Below are positions 32,059-37,288 of a DNA stretch of 64,000 nucleotides, piece by piece. Made by a program: the position numbers and the translations under genes. A model generated the notes under the pieces. That model ran no database searches. It was not told the origin of the DNA and saw nothing but the letters and a program-made list of their open reading frames with translations. Positions within the stretch are counted from its first letter, which is position 1, and each line of letters starts with the position of its first letter. The stretch is from Nitrospirota bacterium (GTDB taxonomy: Bacteria > Nitrospirota > UBA9217). The DNA lies in the NCBI GenBank assembly GCA_963749655.1, contig CAVVOB010000012.1:128001-192000 (forward strand). Reading direction: 5' to 3'.

Positions 32059-33138
32059 GTGCGCCTCTATTCTTCCATGGCAGACCCTCTCATTCCCATA
32101 GAATACGACCGCCTCAGGACCGGGCACATCCTCCGGGCAACGGCGGCCAATGCCGTCATCAATACCCTGATAGCCGTTATCCTCTACGGGATCGGGTACC
32201 GGGATTTTGTCTCCACCCTGATCTTTTCCCAGTGCATCGGCATGTCCATTTTTTTTGCCAACGTGGCAGTACTCCCCCTGTTCCGAAAGGTCGCCCGGCC
32301 GGCATATCAGGTCCTGTTCGTCATAGCGGCTGTAGCAGCGGGGGCGAGTTTCGGCACCCTGCTGGGGGCGTTGGCAAACGGGATGAATCCTCTTGTCTTT
32401 GTGAGGGAGAACTTCTCCTATTTTGCCCAGATCGTTTTCGTCGGCCTCTTTTTCGGATTCGTCATAAGCTATATCTTCATTTCTCTCGGCGTGATCTCCG
32501 GGGAGAAGGTCAAGCGCCTTGAAGCGGAGAAGAACGGCGTGGAGGCCGAGCTTCGGCTGATCCAGTCCCAGATGGAGCCCCATTTCCTCTTCAATACGCT
32601 CTCGAACGTCCTGAGCCTGATCGACACGGACCGCGAACAGGCGAAGCGCATGCTCGAGTCCTTTACGCTCTTTCTGCGCACGTCGCTCCTGACCGCGCGC
32701 CGCAGGACCATCCCGCTGTCGCAGGAATGGGACATCGTACGGAACTACCTCCGGGTGTTTGAGGTCCGCATGGGGGACCGCCTGCGCTACCGGCTCGATC
32801 TGCCCGACGATCTGCGCGATTTCCCGGTCCCGCCGCTGCTTGTTCAGCCGCTGGTCGAGAACGCGATCAAGCACGGGCTGGAACCTTCGCCCAAAGGCGG
32901 GGAAATCACCGTCAGCGCCGTCCTCGACGGGGCGCTGGTCCGCATCATCGTCGTTGATTCAGGCATGGGCGTGAACGAAAGCGGCCCCGGAAACGGGATC
33001 AGCCTGGAAAACATCAGAAAGCGTCTGTCACTCGTGTATGGAGAACGGGCCCGGCTCCTCTTCGAGGAGAATGCGCCGAAGGGCATCCGGGTCGTCGTTG
33101 AGATACCCCATGAAACAGATACGAGCAATCATAGCTGA
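32059..33138 (+). CDS. LytS/YehU-family sensor histidine kinase
   Basis: Four TMs, QSQMEPHFLFNTL, QPLVENAIKHG, DSGMG and GISLENIRKRL. Confidence 0.93.
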   Translation: MRLYSSMADPLIPIEYDRLRTGHILRATAANAVINTLIAVILYGIGYRDFVSTLIFSQCIGMSIFFANVAVLPLFRKVARPAYQVLFVIAAVAAGASFGTLLGALANGMNPLVFVRENFSYFAQIVFVGLFFGFVISYIFISLGVISGEKVKRLEAEKNGVEAELRLIQSQMEPHFLFNTLSNVLSLIDTDREQAKRMLESFTLFLRTSLLTARRRTIPLSQEWDIVRNYLRVFEVRMGDRLRYRLDLPDDLRDFPVPPLLVQPLVENAIKHGLEPSPKGGEITVSAVLDGALVRIIVVDSGMGVNESGPGNGISLENIRKRLSLVYGERARLLFEENAPKGIRVVVEIPHETDTSNHS

Positions 33139-33868
33139 CGATGAAGAGGCGCTCCGCGGTCATCTGAAGCGAAGACTAACGGCCCTCTGGCCCGGCGTCA
33201 GGATCGTCGGCGAGGCGCGGGACGGCGAAGAGGCGCTTAAGCTCATTGCGGATGCAAAACCCGACGTCGCCTTCCTGGACATCAGAATGCCGGGGCTTAC
33301 GGGAATCGAGGTTGCCCGGAAGACAGCCGGGTCCTGCCTGTTCGTTTTCGTGACCGCCTTCGACCGGTACGCTGTCGAGGCCTTTGAACAAGGGGCGCTC
33401 GATTATCTTCTGAAACCGGTGATCGACGAACGACTGAAGAAGACCATCGAACGCCTCGACGCCCGGCTGTCAACAGGATCAACGCCGCCCGACATCGCCG
33501 GCGTGCTCGATAAAGTGTCTCAGGCCCTCAAGCAGGCGCCGGCGCATTTGCAGTGGATCAAAGCCCAGCACAAGGACGGTGTGCGGCTCATCCCCATTGC
33601 CGATGTCCTGTTTTTCCGGGCAACGGACAAGTACACCACGGTCCGGTCCAAAGATGGCGAGTTCCTGATCCGGAAGAGCATCAAGGACCTCGAAGAGGAG
33701 CTCGATCCCGAGCAGTTCTGGCGCGTGCACCGGGCGGCCATCGTGAACGTCAAGGCGATCCAGACCGTCAGCCGCTCCGTGGCCGGGACGTTCGATATAA
33801 GGTTCAGGGACATACCTGACCGTCTCACCGTCAGCCGGGCCTATGCTCATCTTTTTAAACAGATGTAG
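33110..33868 (+). CDS. LytTR-family response regulator
   Basis: IADDE, FLDIRMPG, FVTAFD, DYLLKP, FWRVHRAAIVN and VSRAY. Confidence 0.94.
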   Translation: MKQIRAIIADDEEALRGHLKRRLTALWPGVRIVGEARDGEEALKLIADAKPDVAFLDIRMPGLTGIEVARKTAGSCLFVFVTAFDRYAVEAFEQGALDYLLKPVIDERLKKTIERLDARLSTGSTPPDIAGVLDKVSQALKQAPAHLQWIKAQHKDGVRLIPIADVLFFRATDKYTTVRSKDGEFLIRKSIKDLEEELDPEQFWRVHRAAIVNVKAIQTVSRSVAGTFDIRFRDIPDRLTVSRAYAHLFKQM

Positions 33869-33974
33869 CGAGCCGCAGCCTTTACTTTGATATTTATTTC
33901 CGCGGCCTGATGAGGTAATTTAAGGCAGGCTTTAAATCCAGAAAGAAACGCGAATCCGCAAGCGGGAGATTGCC

Positions 33975-34811
33975 ATGACCGATGACCTGATGAAAAACGG
34001 CGCTGCTCCGACCTGAGCGCCCTCGGGCGGCGCTGGAAGCTGCCGCTTGGATTTTGCCAAACTATCACCTGCCCCGGTTCCTGATATCGTTGAGATCAGA
34101 ACAACCATCAGGAACAAATATTCCGAGGTGTCCGTATCAGCAGCAGGAAAGTTCCTCTATCCCACGGGCAGGGAAGGCGCAAAAGCATTGGGCTACGACG
34201 CCGCTGTCCTGGAACGAGCTCCGGAGGGATTTTTCGAATCCTTCTGCGGCGTCGGCAACCCGTTCACTCTGGGGCCGATTCGGTCCGGCGATTCGGTGCT
34301 CGATGTCGGCTGCGGAGCAGGCTTCGACCTTTTTGTCGCTAGCCGGCTGGTGGGGGAAAGCGGCCGCGTCGTGGGCATTGATCTGACTGACGAGATGGCG
34401 GCGCGAGCCAAAGAGAACCTCGCCTCCGCAGACGCCGCGAACGTTGAAATCAGAGTAGTCGATTCGGAAATCATTCCCTCTACTGACGGCTCTTTTGATG
34501 TCGTGATCTCGAACGGCGTCATCAATCTTTCCCCCCGCAAGGAAACGACCTTCGGTGAAATATTCCGCGTGCTGAAATCAGGGGGCAGGCTGCAATTCGC
34601 CGATGTGGTCGTGGAAAACGATCTGCCCGCGCATCTGGCCGGAAGCGCCGAAGCCTGGTCCCAATGAATAGGCGGCACGGTCCCGGTCCGGGACCAGATC
34701 AGGCTGATGGAAGGGGCCGGCTTCGTCAACGTCGAATTCGCCGGTCTGACCGGCTTCCGCACATCGCAGTACACGGTCGGCGCCCTGTTCCGGGCGCGCA
34801 GGCCGGGGTGA
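33975..34811 (+). CDS. ArsM-like SAM-dependent methyltransferase, predicted selenoprotein (UGA at 34014 and 34665)
   Basis: GGGAGA RBS before ATG 33975; FCGVGNP, VLDVGCGAGFD and SNGVINL; frame continues past UGA as AWSQ-U-IGG..AGF to TGA 34811; hairpins 10-11 nt after both UGAs. Confidence 0.85.
34027..34046 (+). other. putative SECIS for the first UGA
   Basis: GCGGC-GC-UGGAA-GC-(U bulge)-GCCGC, 10 nt after the UGA at 34014-34016. Confidence 0.55.
34679..34695 (+). other. putative SECIS for the second UGA
   Basis: GGUCCC-GGUCC-GGGACC 17-nt hairpin 11 nt after the UGA at 34665-34667, with G at the start of the loop. Confidence 0.75.
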
Positions 34812-35185: not shown

Positions 35186-35233
35186 TCACTCAGAACATGA
35201 GAAGAGGCTTTGATCCGCACGATGGAGGTTGCC

Positions 35234-35908
35234 ATGAACATTCTCGAATTCCGGAAAGTTATAAAGGACTACCGTCTCGGAGAAACCGTGGTTCATGCCC
35301 TGCGGGGCGTTGACCTCGGAATCGAGCAGGGCGAGTTCATCGCCGTTCTTGGGGCCTCGGGCAGCGGCAAGACCACGCTGCTGAATCTCGCAGGCGCGGT
35401 GGACGATCCCACGGAAGGCAGCGTCCTGATCGCGGGCAAGGACATCGCGGGGCTGTCGGACAATCAGAAAGCGGACCTCAGGAACCGGACCGTCGGGTTC
35501 ATCTTCCAGACCTTCAACCTGATCCCCGTGCTGTCGGCCCTGGAGAACGTCATGTTCTCGCTCCAGATCCGGGGCGGCACGTGGTCGAGCATCAAAAAGG
35601 AAGCAGCGCAGCGGCTGGACGACGTGGGGCTTGCGGACTTCATGAATCACCGGCCGGACAAACTGTCAGGCGGACAGCGGCAGCGGGTGGCGATCGCCCG
35701 GGCATTGATCACGAAGCCCCAGCTGATCCTTGCCGACGAGCCCACGGCGAACCTGGACCATGAAACCGCGCAGTCCATCATCGACCTGATGAAGGACCTG
35801 AACGAACGGGAAAAGGTCACCTTTGTTTTCTCGACCCACGACCAGCGCCTGATCAACGAGGTGAAGCGCGTCGTGCGGATCGACGACGGAAAGATCGTGA
35901 ATGCTTGA
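35234..35908 (+). CDS. ABC transporter ATP-binding protein (LolD/MacB-like)
   Basis: [29 protein letters not shown] and STHD. Confidence 0.94.
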
Positions 35909-35933
35909 CTGCGGAAACAATGGCACCGCTTTT

Positions 35934-36003
35934 GACGGGATAACAGGATTTACAGGATCAAGTATGCTGCGGATTTTATCCGACGTTATCCTGTAATCCT
36001 GTC
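35934..36003. repeat. palindromic repeat (acaggatttacaggat / atcctgtaatcctgtc)
   Basis: Inverted arms visible in the intergenic gap. Confidence 0.55.
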
Positions 36004-36040
36004 GAAGATTTGCCGGTTCGTTGTATACAAGGAGGCACTT

Positions 36041-37288
36041 ATGCTCATGTGGCTGACCATATCACTCAGGAACATCGTCAAGAACGGCAGGCGGAGCCTG
36101 ACCACGATCCTCGCGATCGGCCTGGGATATGCCGCGATCAATCTTTTTCAGGGTTACGTGCACAGCACATACCTCGGCCTGACCAATGCCGCGATCCACG
36201 GCGAAGGTCTGGGACATATCACCATATTCAAGAAGGGCTATCTCGACCAGGGAAAGCTGCACCCCGAGAAGTTCCAGTTCAGCCGCGACGAGGTGGAGCG
36301 CATCTCCGGGCTCATCAAACAGCGTCCCGACGTGGAGCTGGTCACCCCGAGGCTGTCCGTAGCAGGCATCATTTCGAACGGCAGGAACTCGACGATCTTC
36401 ATTTCCCAGGGCCTGGTGCCGTCCGATGATGTAAAGATCAGGGGGGACCTGACGAAATACACGTCCTTTACCGGGTCCTACCTGAAGGACGATGAACGGA
36501 CCGGGGTGGTGATCGGGTCCGAGCTGGCCGGGATGCTGAATCTCAAGGCGGGAAGCGACGCCGTGATCCTGAGCAACTCCTATACAGGCATGGCGAACGC
36601 CCTCGATGTCAAGGTCCTGGGCGTCTACAACACCGGGGCAACGGCCACGAACGATAAAATGGTGCTCATGACCTATCCCCACGCCCAGAACCTCGTTGAT
36701 TTTCCCGGCGCCGAACGTCTGGTAGTGCTGCTCAAGAACGGCGGAAACGGGACTGCAGCTTCCGTTGCCGCAGAGCAGATCAACCGGATGCTGACCGGGG
36801 CGGGGTTCGGCGTGGAGATCAAGACCTGGAACCAGCTGTCGGTGTTCTACAACCAGGTAAAGAACCTTTTTGACATGATCTTCCTGTTCATCTTCTCGAT
36901 CGTCCTGGTGATCGTGATCATGAGCGTGATCAACACCATGAGCGTGTCGGTCATGGAGCGGACGCGGGAGATCGGTACCATGCGGGCGCTGGGGCTCAAG
37001 CGCTACGGCGTCAAGTTCCTCTTCGCTACAGAAGGAGTGCTTCTCGGCATCCTGGGCAGCATCGTCGGCAGCGCCGTCTTCTTCACAGTTTATGCGATCA
37101 TCACGGCGACCCATCCGACGTACATCCCGCCGGCCTCGTCCAATCCGGTGCCGCTCCGGGTGGACCTCGTCTGGCCGCTCCTGGTGCGGAGCGTGTTCTT
37201 TATGTCGCTGTTGTCCCTTGTTTCAGCCTATGTTCCGGCGCGGCGTTCGGCCCGGATGGCGGTGGTTGATGCACTGGGGCATATTTGA
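36041..37288 (+). CDS. ABC transporter permease (LolC/E-FtsX family)
   Basis: RNIVKNGRRSL, ERTREIGTMRALG and PARRSAR. Confidence 0.92.
   Translation: MLMWLTISLRNIVKNGRRSLTTILAIGLGYAAINLFQGYVHSTYLGLTNAAIHGEGLGHITIFKKGYLDQGKLHPEKFQFSRDEVERISGLIKQRPDVELVTPRLSVAGIISNGRNSTIFISQGLVPSDDVKIRGDLTKYTSFTGSYLKDDERTGVVIGSELAGMLNLKAGSDAVILSNSYTGMANALDVKVLGVYNTGATATNDKMVLMTYPHAQNLVDFPGAERLVVLLKNGGNGTAASVAAEQINRMLTGAGFGVEIKTWNQLSVFYNQVKNLFDMIFLFIFSIVLVIVIMSVINTMSVSVMERTREIGTMRALGLKRYGVKFLFATEGVLLGILGSIVGSAVFFTVYAIITATHPTYIPPASSNPVPLRVDLVWPLLVRSVFFMSLLSLVSAYVPARRSARMAVVDALGHI

Follow-up and report, generated by a model that had tools for sequence, protein, structure and literature searches.

Based on our results, we conclude that a gene in a stretch of DNA from a Nitrospirota bacterium (GTDB lineage Bacteria; Nitrospirota; UBA9217) likely encodes a relative of the arsenite methyltransferase ArsM that contains two residues of selenocysteine (Sec). 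The stretch, referred to here as the window, is 64,000 nucleotides long (GenBank assembly GCA_963749655.1, contig CAVVOB010000012.1, positions 128,001 to 192,000 of the forward strand), and the gene lies at 33975..34811 of the window on the forward strand. Its product would be a single 278-residue S-adenosylmethionine (SAM)-dependent methyltransferase with the ArsM/AS3MT fold, translated through two in-frame UGA codons that would be decoded by SelB. The following features are strongly supported as predictions from the sequence: two Sec insertions, each directed by a candidate selenocysteine insertion sequence (SECIS), the ArsM fold, SAM binding, and the location of one Sec at the catalytic Cys column. 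A sequence-only reading of the window had proposed an enzyme of this kind. The proposal held up: both TGA codons are conserved, the genome contains the Sec machinery, and the second Sec aligns with the catalytic site of solved ArsM structures.

A single reading frame with two internal UGA codons

The frame opens at an ATG at 33975, with a Shine-Dalgarno-like GGGAG (33964..33968, + strand) located 6 nt upstream. It reads MTDDLMKNGAAPT, a TGA at codon 14 (34014..34016), and then APSGGAGSC. Purine-rich boxes are found at the equivalent position 5' of the ATG in many of 32 orthologues. After AWSQ, the frame reaches a second TGA at codon 231 (34665..34667), continues with IGGTVP, and runs 47 codons to a third TGA at 34809..34811. 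The complete coding sequence is thus 278 codons plus a stop, with codons 14 and 231 read as Sec. The ORF (open reading frame) called with genetic code table 11, at 34047-34667, is the piece between the first two TGAs, and the sequence-only reading was right that it is cut at both ends.

We take the third TGA to be the true stop. In 22 of 32 orthologues the frame is closed at this position by TAA or TAG, and the segment 3' of this TGA folds weakly (-6.1 kcal/mol). The C-terminus is RARRPG, and the codons beyond the TGA would read GGEQVLWMIL followed by a stop. The 278-residue protein contains only five Cys or Sec residues: Sec14, Cys23, Cys91, Cys113 (in the SAM motif) and Sec231.

Both UGA codons are conserved across homologues

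Homologues were collected in three ways: a six-frame search of 40 related genomes, a scan of publicly available species genomes, and a set of homologues from protein databases and metagenomes. Eleven of the 40 related genomes (nine of the same genus and two of the same family) have an orthologue with 59-70% identity and exactly two internal TGAs, and the translations of these 11 orthologues show both motifs. In the public species genomes, 38 loci were found: in metagenome-assembled genomes (MAGs) of Nitrospirota/Thermodesulfovibrionia and Desulfobulbaceae/Thermodesulfobacteriota, in a small number of differently labelled MAGs, and in a single isolate, Bacillus benzoevorans DSM 5391. Thirty-seven of these loci were examined, a partial match with 33% identity (L088) being left out. 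The motif W-x-x-U-[IV]-G-G is present in 36 of the 37 (L087 has no motif), and all 36 have Gly in the sequence S-N-G-V. Thirty of the 36 motif loci have a TGA in an N-terminal extension, two are cut by the end of a contig, and four are short forms without the extension. The sets of 32 sequences used below omit two loci (L056 and L080) that have the N-terminal TGA and were missed by the search pattern, and one degraded locus (L066) was dropped from alignments A3 and A4.

The second site, a predicted Sec231, stands at the catalytic cysteine column of ArsM

The sequence-only reading matched AWSQ-U-IGG to the catalytic Cys motif of ArsM, and alignment to solved structures bears this out. In solved ArsMs (5evj, 5eg5), the residue that aligns with U231 is the Cys of GECL[AG]G, which corresponds to C224 of CmArsM. 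The title of PDB entry 5jx7, which describes a C224A mutant, ties this catalytic column to C224 of CmArsM. In 13 canonical relatives the same column is Cys, so that an in-frame UGA stands opposite the Cys of homologues.

The RNA downstream of the second UGA has the properties expected of a SECIS. A 17-nt hairpin, GGUCCCG-GUC-CGGGACC (34679..34695, + strand), starts 11 nt after the TGA and has a G in its apical loop. A stem of at least 5 bp is found at the equivalent distance in all 32 orthologues, and at 2557 of 6727 other in-frame positions in the same genes. RNAalifold recovered the hairpin from 41 sequences, with compensatory changes in four of six pairs. When the helix was scored as seven pairs, 93% of positions were paired and five of the seven pairs had changed on both sides; none of 500 shuffles reached any of the four measures, and controls slid along the sequence gave at most 72.5%. 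In orthologue L053, two amino acids are changed (P to L and R to Q), yet the base pair is kept. Based on the aligned Cys residues and this covariation, we regard Sec at codon 231 as close to certain.

Fold and family of the predicted protein

The protein matches class I SAM methyltransferase domains in Pfam (Methyltransf_31, 112 bits), and its SAM-binding motif VLDVGCGAG (residues 108-116) is encoded at 34296..34322 (+ strand). Five residues of this motif, D110, G112, C113, G114 and G116, are invariant in the 32-sequence alignment A4. The highest-scoring models in NCBIfam release 20 are three families of ArsM-type multi-selenoproteins (NF041537, 294 bits; NF047649, 281 bits; NF041536, 268 bits), followed by the generic arsenite methyltransferase model NF008823 (200.4 bits against a cut-off of 263). 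The protein reached none of the curated cut-offs in this release. All of the matches are confined to residues 37-277, and the first 50 amino acids alone gave no NCBIfam match even at E<=10. NF045647, which was also considered, is an unrelated family (alr0857_fam) and does not match the protein.

Structural comparisons also point to ArsM. A phmmer search of PDB sequences placed only ArsM and AS3MT chains at the top (5evj, CrArsM, 5e-26; 4fr0, 4.5e-25). An AlphaFold2 model made from 32 family members has a mean predicted local distance difference test (pLDDT) score of 87.2 and a predicted template modelling (TM) score of 0.83, with pLDDT above 90 in the core. The 13 best Foldseek matches to this model are all ArsM or AS3MT, with TM-scores, normalised to the query, of 0.53-0.68. 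The protein thus has both the SAM-binding Rossmann domain, as judged by Pfam, and the ArsM fold, as judged by the top 13 fold ranks.

The canonical cysteines are largely gone

The conserved cysteines of ArsM are those at positions 44, 72, 174 and 224 of CmArsM, and a survey of ArsM, as given in the available part of its text, required at least three of the four (PMC5552862). The window protein keeps one, the C224 column, and keeps it as Sec231. The C174 column is Gly181 (VISNGVINL here, VISNCVINL in ArsM; codon at 34515..34517, placed by alignment to PDB ArsM chains). This residue is Gly in all 36 motif loci and invariant in A4. The C72 column is Val93, with Cys91, also invariant in A4, two residues earlier (FCGVGNP here, F[WY]GCGNP in ArsM). 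This segment, residues 90-96, is encoded at 34242..34262 and was placed by phmmer alignment to 5evj and 5eg5. There is no equivalent of C44, with no Cys anywhere between residues 24 and 90. Cys23 is present in most members of the family and is not invariant. Judged by its sequence, the window protein is ArsM-like and not a canonical ArsM.

A quick maximum-likelihood tree is consistent with this distinction. Forty sequences of the Gly/Sec type and 13 ArsMs of the Cys/Cys type are divided by a long branch with 100% support in the Shimodaira-Hasegawa-like approximate likelihood ratio test (SH-aLRT). The tree was rooted at its midpoint, and of its groupings by type only this split was used.

A proposed mechanism and substrate

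Because Gly and Val stand at the C174 and C72 columns, respectively, and C44 has no equivalent, we postulate that the N-terminal arm contributes to the active site. SelB would decode the two UGAs, each with its own downstream stem-loop. Sec231 would replace the catalytic or As-binding Cys, C224 of CmArsM. The flexible arm could then bring Sec14 into the active site, close to Sec231 and Cys91, accompanied in most members by Cys23. Sec14, Sec231 and Cys91 might bind a soft metal(loid), or might form a Se-Se or Se-S redox couple. Such a site would take the role of the canonical C44-C72 and C174-C224 pairs, and SAM would then methylate the bound atom. We give the arm mechanism and a metal(loid) substrate, taken together, about an even chance of being correct.

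From the fold and the homology, we infer that the enzyme may methylate a metal(loid). As(III) is our default guess for the substrate, and Sb, Se, Te or Hg are possible. A reading with some claim, though the less probable one, is that the two-Sec enzyme acts on something other than arsenite: Se, Te, Sb, Hg, or a thiol or selenol compound. The retention of one of four canonical Cys columns would fit such a substrate, as would the score below the cut-off of the arsenite methyltransferase model. In addition, the same genome has a canonical Cys-type ArsM (G000:C16:27282-27863, - strand, locus L049) with SNCV and the catalytic Cys, and with 43% identity to the window protein. The two-Sec enzyme thus exists alongside the canonical one in this genome and has not taken its place.

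The gene neighbourhoods would also fit a substrate other than arsenite. No neighbourhood, and so no ars neighbourhood, is conserved among the 36 loci, the most common neighbour being an ABC ATPase in six of the 36. Among 55 flanking proteins, the only ones that hint at arsenic are one LMWPc (ArsC-like) protein beside one orthologue and one SBF/Acr3-type protein beside the short form from Bacillus benzoevorans. These two neighbours nevertheless speak for arsenite, as does the fact that the sequences and structures most similar to the window protein all belong to As(III) methyltransferases.

The first site, a probable Sec14, lies on an N-terminal arm

Residues 1-32 (33975..34070, + strand) form an arm that contains the proposed Sec14 and Cys23 and is predicted to be disordered. 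The arm is rich in Gly and Pro, with the layout M-x12-U-P-P-x-G-x-G-x-C. TGA14 is invariant in the family alignment (all 32 rows of A4). It is followed by a conserved U-P-P-x-G-x-x-G in which P16 is at least 90% conserved. In 23 of the 32 orthologues, U is residue 14, and the ATG has a purine-rich box at a fixed upstream distance.

The positions of possible start codons also indicate that the first UGA is read through. Between the first TGA and the conserved core helix, 11 of the 32 orthologues lack any ATG, GTG or TTG, and 26 lack an ATG. Several have no possible start until after the FCGVGNP and SAM motifs. Thus, in those 11 orthologues the core could be translated only by read-through of the TGA. 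Protein sequence is conserved on both sides of the UGA, and these 11 genes have no alternative start before the core.

The candidate SECIS after the first TGA has a 10-bp stem and the 8-nt loop CUGGAAGC (34023..34050, + strand). The sequence-only reading had placed a hairpin 10-11 nt past each UGA, similar to a known SECIS geometry. This spacing is correct for the second UGA; at the first, the stem starts 6 nt after the codon, with its upper six pairs about 10 nt after it. The sequences of the stems vary by clade (for example, GGCGGC/GUUGCC, GCACC/GGUGC, CUGGC/GCCAG and CUGAU/AUCAG). Because the registers differ, structure after the first TGA was scored by hairpin calls in each sequence, with controls from within the same genes, and by a count in a fixed register. 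In 29 of the 32 orthologues, the UGA is followed by a stem of at least 5 bp whose loop falls 18-24 nt past the U of the codon, compared to 38% of the 6727 control positions. In 25 of those 29 hairpins there is a G among the first two bases of the loop (control rate, 17%). The fixed register gave 75% pairing, which was reached by 3 of 500 shuffles (3 to 16 of 500 across measures). The folding energy of the 42 nt after the TGA, ranked within its own gene, has a median rank of 0.066 for the first TGA and 0.062 for the second, and at each site this segment is in the lowest tenth in 20 of the 32 orthologues.

Several observations weigh against Sec at the first site, and one of them extends to the second. 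The Sec14 column contains no Cys in alignment A1, in A4 or among the 36 loci; members with an arm all have TGA. Codon 14 therefore lacks the classic Cys/Sec pair, and the alignment of Cys and UGA homologues that had been suggested as a check bore out codon 231 and not codon 14. RNAalifold found no consensus structure in the ungapped alignment after the first TGA, and three of the 32 orthologues lack a stem of at least 5 bp there. The window hairpins, taken alone, are unremarkable: z is -0.40 at the first TGA (60 of 200 dinucleotide shuffles as good) and -0.44 at the second (65 of 200). Single-sequence z-scores are uninformative in this GC-rich gene. Because the window hairpins fold no better than shuffles, support above chance comes only from the comparison across genomes. 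Lastly, the arm is undocked in the AlphaFold2 model, with pLDDT below 50. As the sequence-only reading had expected, the second Sec is the better supported of the two, since only it has Cys homologues and clean covariation.

An alternative that is compatible with some of these observations is that only the second UGA specifies Sec. TGA14 would then end an upstream ORF of 13 codons with a leader or regulatory function, and a single-Sec enzyme without an arm would be made from the TTG at 34047. The window copy does have this in-frame TTG, at codon 25, as a possible downstream start. Moreover, four short relatives (L073, L077, L079 and L083) have a single Sec and no arm, starting at the core with the motifs W-S-N-U-[IV]-G-G and S-N-G-V-L-N; they form one clade (97%) inside the Sec group of the tree. 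The lack of Cys homologues and of a single consensus hairpin at the first site would also be explained. However, an upstream ORF would not account for a TGA that is invariant in 32 of 32 sequences, for the conservation in frame of the residues that follow it, for a positioned hairpin well above the control rate, or for the orthologues with no start between this TGA and the core. We therefore consider the upstream ORF improbable, and Sec at codon 14 very likely.

The genome can decode UGA as selenocysteine

The assembly that contains the window (86.6% complete, 39 contigs) has all four of the sel genes that were proposed as a check, each above its cut-off. selA (611 bits) adjoins selB (367 bits), and the tRNA-Sec gene, selC, is on the same contig (62.8 bits against a gathering score of 47). 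selD (355 bits; G000:C21:1685-2611, - strand, locus L010) has one in-frame TGA, and the selenophosphate synthetase of this genome is therefore probably itself a selenoprotein. TGA is a normal stop in this genome, because it terminates 23 of the 47 ORFs of at least 250 amino acids in the window. Five DNA sequencing runs contain shares of 0.05-0.13 of the stretch, and among the listed runs there is no RNA run.

Among the 120 database matches listed, the homologues from NCBI are all pieces of 193-216 amino acids, and the family is routinely annotated as truncated. Twenty-one database homologues that cover at least 85% of the query were aligned, all from contigs of 0.9-2.8 kb. Twenty of these 21 metagenome proteins have W at both TGA columns, as would be written by a gene caller using a code in which TGA is Trp. 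Public metagenome calls of this kind (P0002-P0092) are full-length but wrong proteins, with both TGAs given as Trp and the annotation 'arsenite methyltransferase'. The remaining protein, P0059 (metagenome, 256 amino acids), has no arm and has Ser (AWSDSIGG) at the Sec231 column.

Two relatives have damaged copies. In a same-genus genome, the orthologue (L031/L066, G001:C1:578117-578881) has no ATG before the first TGA, an altered Cys23 region and a shortened C-terminus (...FWVKMLDR-stop), and looks degraded; a further fragment of 62 residues, containing both a TGA and a TAG, lies on another contig of this genome (G001:C9:150684-150869). In a same-family genome, L047 (G015:C189:15772-16056) consists of only the first ~90 codons, with the N-terminal TGA and U-P-S-S-G. 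It is likely a remnant, because the frame then breaks.

The Trp residues in metagenome proteins and these damaged copies might suggest that the TGAs are sequencing or assembly errors, marks of a decaying pseudogene, or Trp or Gly codons under another code, an explanation we find scarcely credible given that both TGAs reappear in dozens of assemblies made independently, TGA ends many long ORFs of the window, the Sec machinery is complete, and solved ArsMs have Cys and not Trp at the column of the second site.

Comparison with known selenoproteins and methyltransferases

Sec-containing homologues of ArsM, and fusions of ArsM with more than one Sec, are already catalogued. In the available text of two reviews, arsenite methyltransferase is listed as a 'UxxG' selenoprotein with one Sec, credited to Fomenko et al. 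2007 (PMC13188914, PMC9312934). The Sec-containing enzyme of the PRK11873/NF008823 type has the same fold as the window protein and has Sec at the same catalytic column, in W-x-x-U-I-G-G. The window protein differs in having a second Sec, on the N-terminal arm, and in having Val and Gly at the C72 and C174 columns. The canonical Cys-type enzymes (CmArsM, 4fr0/4fs8; CrArsM, 5evj; human AS3MT, 8xt7) share the fold of the SAM-binding and As-binding domains. They have four cysteines and a C-terminal domain, whereas the window family retains just one of these columns, 224, as Sec, adds the Sec arm, and lacks the C-terminal domain. Accordingly, the window protein is 278 amino acids long, compared to 306-333 resolved residues in ArsM/AS3MT chains (321-387 amino acids deposited).

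Two fusions, in which arsenite methyltransferase is joined to AhpD or DUF2284 (NF041537 and NF041536), are ArsM-like proteins with multiple Sec residues and are among the best-scoring models for the core. Their extra Sec is in the fused C-terminal domain, and the window protein has no such domain. Its match to NF041537 (293.9 bits against a cut-off of 510) covers positions 9-249 of 345, and its match to NF041536 (268 against 575) covers positions 10-249 of 459.

NF047649 is described, in the available part of PMC13188914, as a methyltransferase/UXPK-star double selenoprotein (Haft & Tolstoy 2025) with a UxxG Sec and a Sec in a short C-terminal tail. Its methyltransferase core is closely related to that of the window protein (280.6 bits over profile positions 9-248), and its second Sec likewise lies on a short terminal tail. 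According to that description, the tail of NF047649 is C-terminal and ends U-x-P-K-stop. In contrast, the second Sec of the window protein is N-terminal, in U-P-P, and its C-terminus is ...RARRPG-stop. The window protein falls short of the cut-off (460) and leaves profile positions 249-283 without a match. A search of 151 genomes from the phylum gave no member of NF047649 above the cut-off. A terminal Sec tail beside this core may be a recurring solution, because NF047649, the nearest curated family, is described as having its second Sec on a C-terminal tail.

The sequence-only reading had also named MduS for comparison. As far as the available text of PMC13188914 describes it, MduS is a methyltransferase domain-containing selenoprotein with two Sec residues, the domain PF13649 and the motif CxxU, and WP_332845911.1 is given as its representative. 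The window protein shares with it a methyltransferase domain and two Sec residues, and has no CxxU. Because of this, the two proteins probably belong to different families, set apart by the description of MduS. The BSepDB paper mentions neither methyltransferase nor MduS. An N-terminal Sec arm combined with loss of C72 and C174 was absent from NCBIfam release 20, from the available portions of the review tables (PMC13188914, PMC9312934) and from full-text literature searches, with MduS compared by description only.

Neighbouring genes and individual relatives

In the window, the gene is flanked upstream by a LytS-type histidine kinase and a LytTR response regulator (32059-33868, + strand), and downstream by a MacB-like ABC exporter consisting of an ATPase and an FtsX permease (35210-37288, + strand). 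Neither set of neighbours is common to the orthologous loci. In a Deltaproteobacteria MAG, another ORF for a methyltransferase of this superfamily (L060:7849-8517, + strand) is located ~3 kb downstream of the two-Sec gene. The short-form copy in the cultured Bacillus benzoevorans DSM 5391 is near the SBF/Acr3-type transporter gene noted above. In the tree, L085, L054 and L068, whose MAGs are labelled Desulfobulbaceae, Betaproteobacteria and Chloroflexota, nest among copies from other phyla, which suggests either horizontal transfer or mis-binning.

Implications

Previously catalogued Sec-containing ArsM homologues have one Sec, or are fusions with an extra Sec in a C-terminal domain or tail; the family described here has a probable second Sec on an N-terminal arm. 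The remodelled site, with a second Sec on the arm and Val and Gly in place of Cys72 and Cys174, would be a natural experiment in how selenium can rewire a metalloid-binding site. We speculate, and only tentatively, that this is an obligately two-selenium family in which the arm Sec functionally replaces three ArsM cysteines. Its Sec-Sec(-Cys) site could have a distinct chemistry, perhaps with Se, Te, Sb or Hg as substrate. The family might have spread horizontally among anaerobic Nitrospirota and Desulfobulbia-type bacteria, and might be systematically mis-annotated as a truncated methyltransferase of 193-216 amino acids.

The first site is also a test case for the prediction of selenoproteins. 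Methods based on Cys/Sec pairs cannot find it, because there is no Cys homologue at that position, and such a Sec site is invisible to them. For the short forms, Bacillus benzoevorans DSM 5391 could provide an experimental entry point. Lastly, because the pieces in NCBI are truncated and metagenome gene callers wrote Trp, this family is probably missed or mis-scored when arsenic-methylation genes and selenoproteomes are surveyed in anoxic sediments and groundwater.

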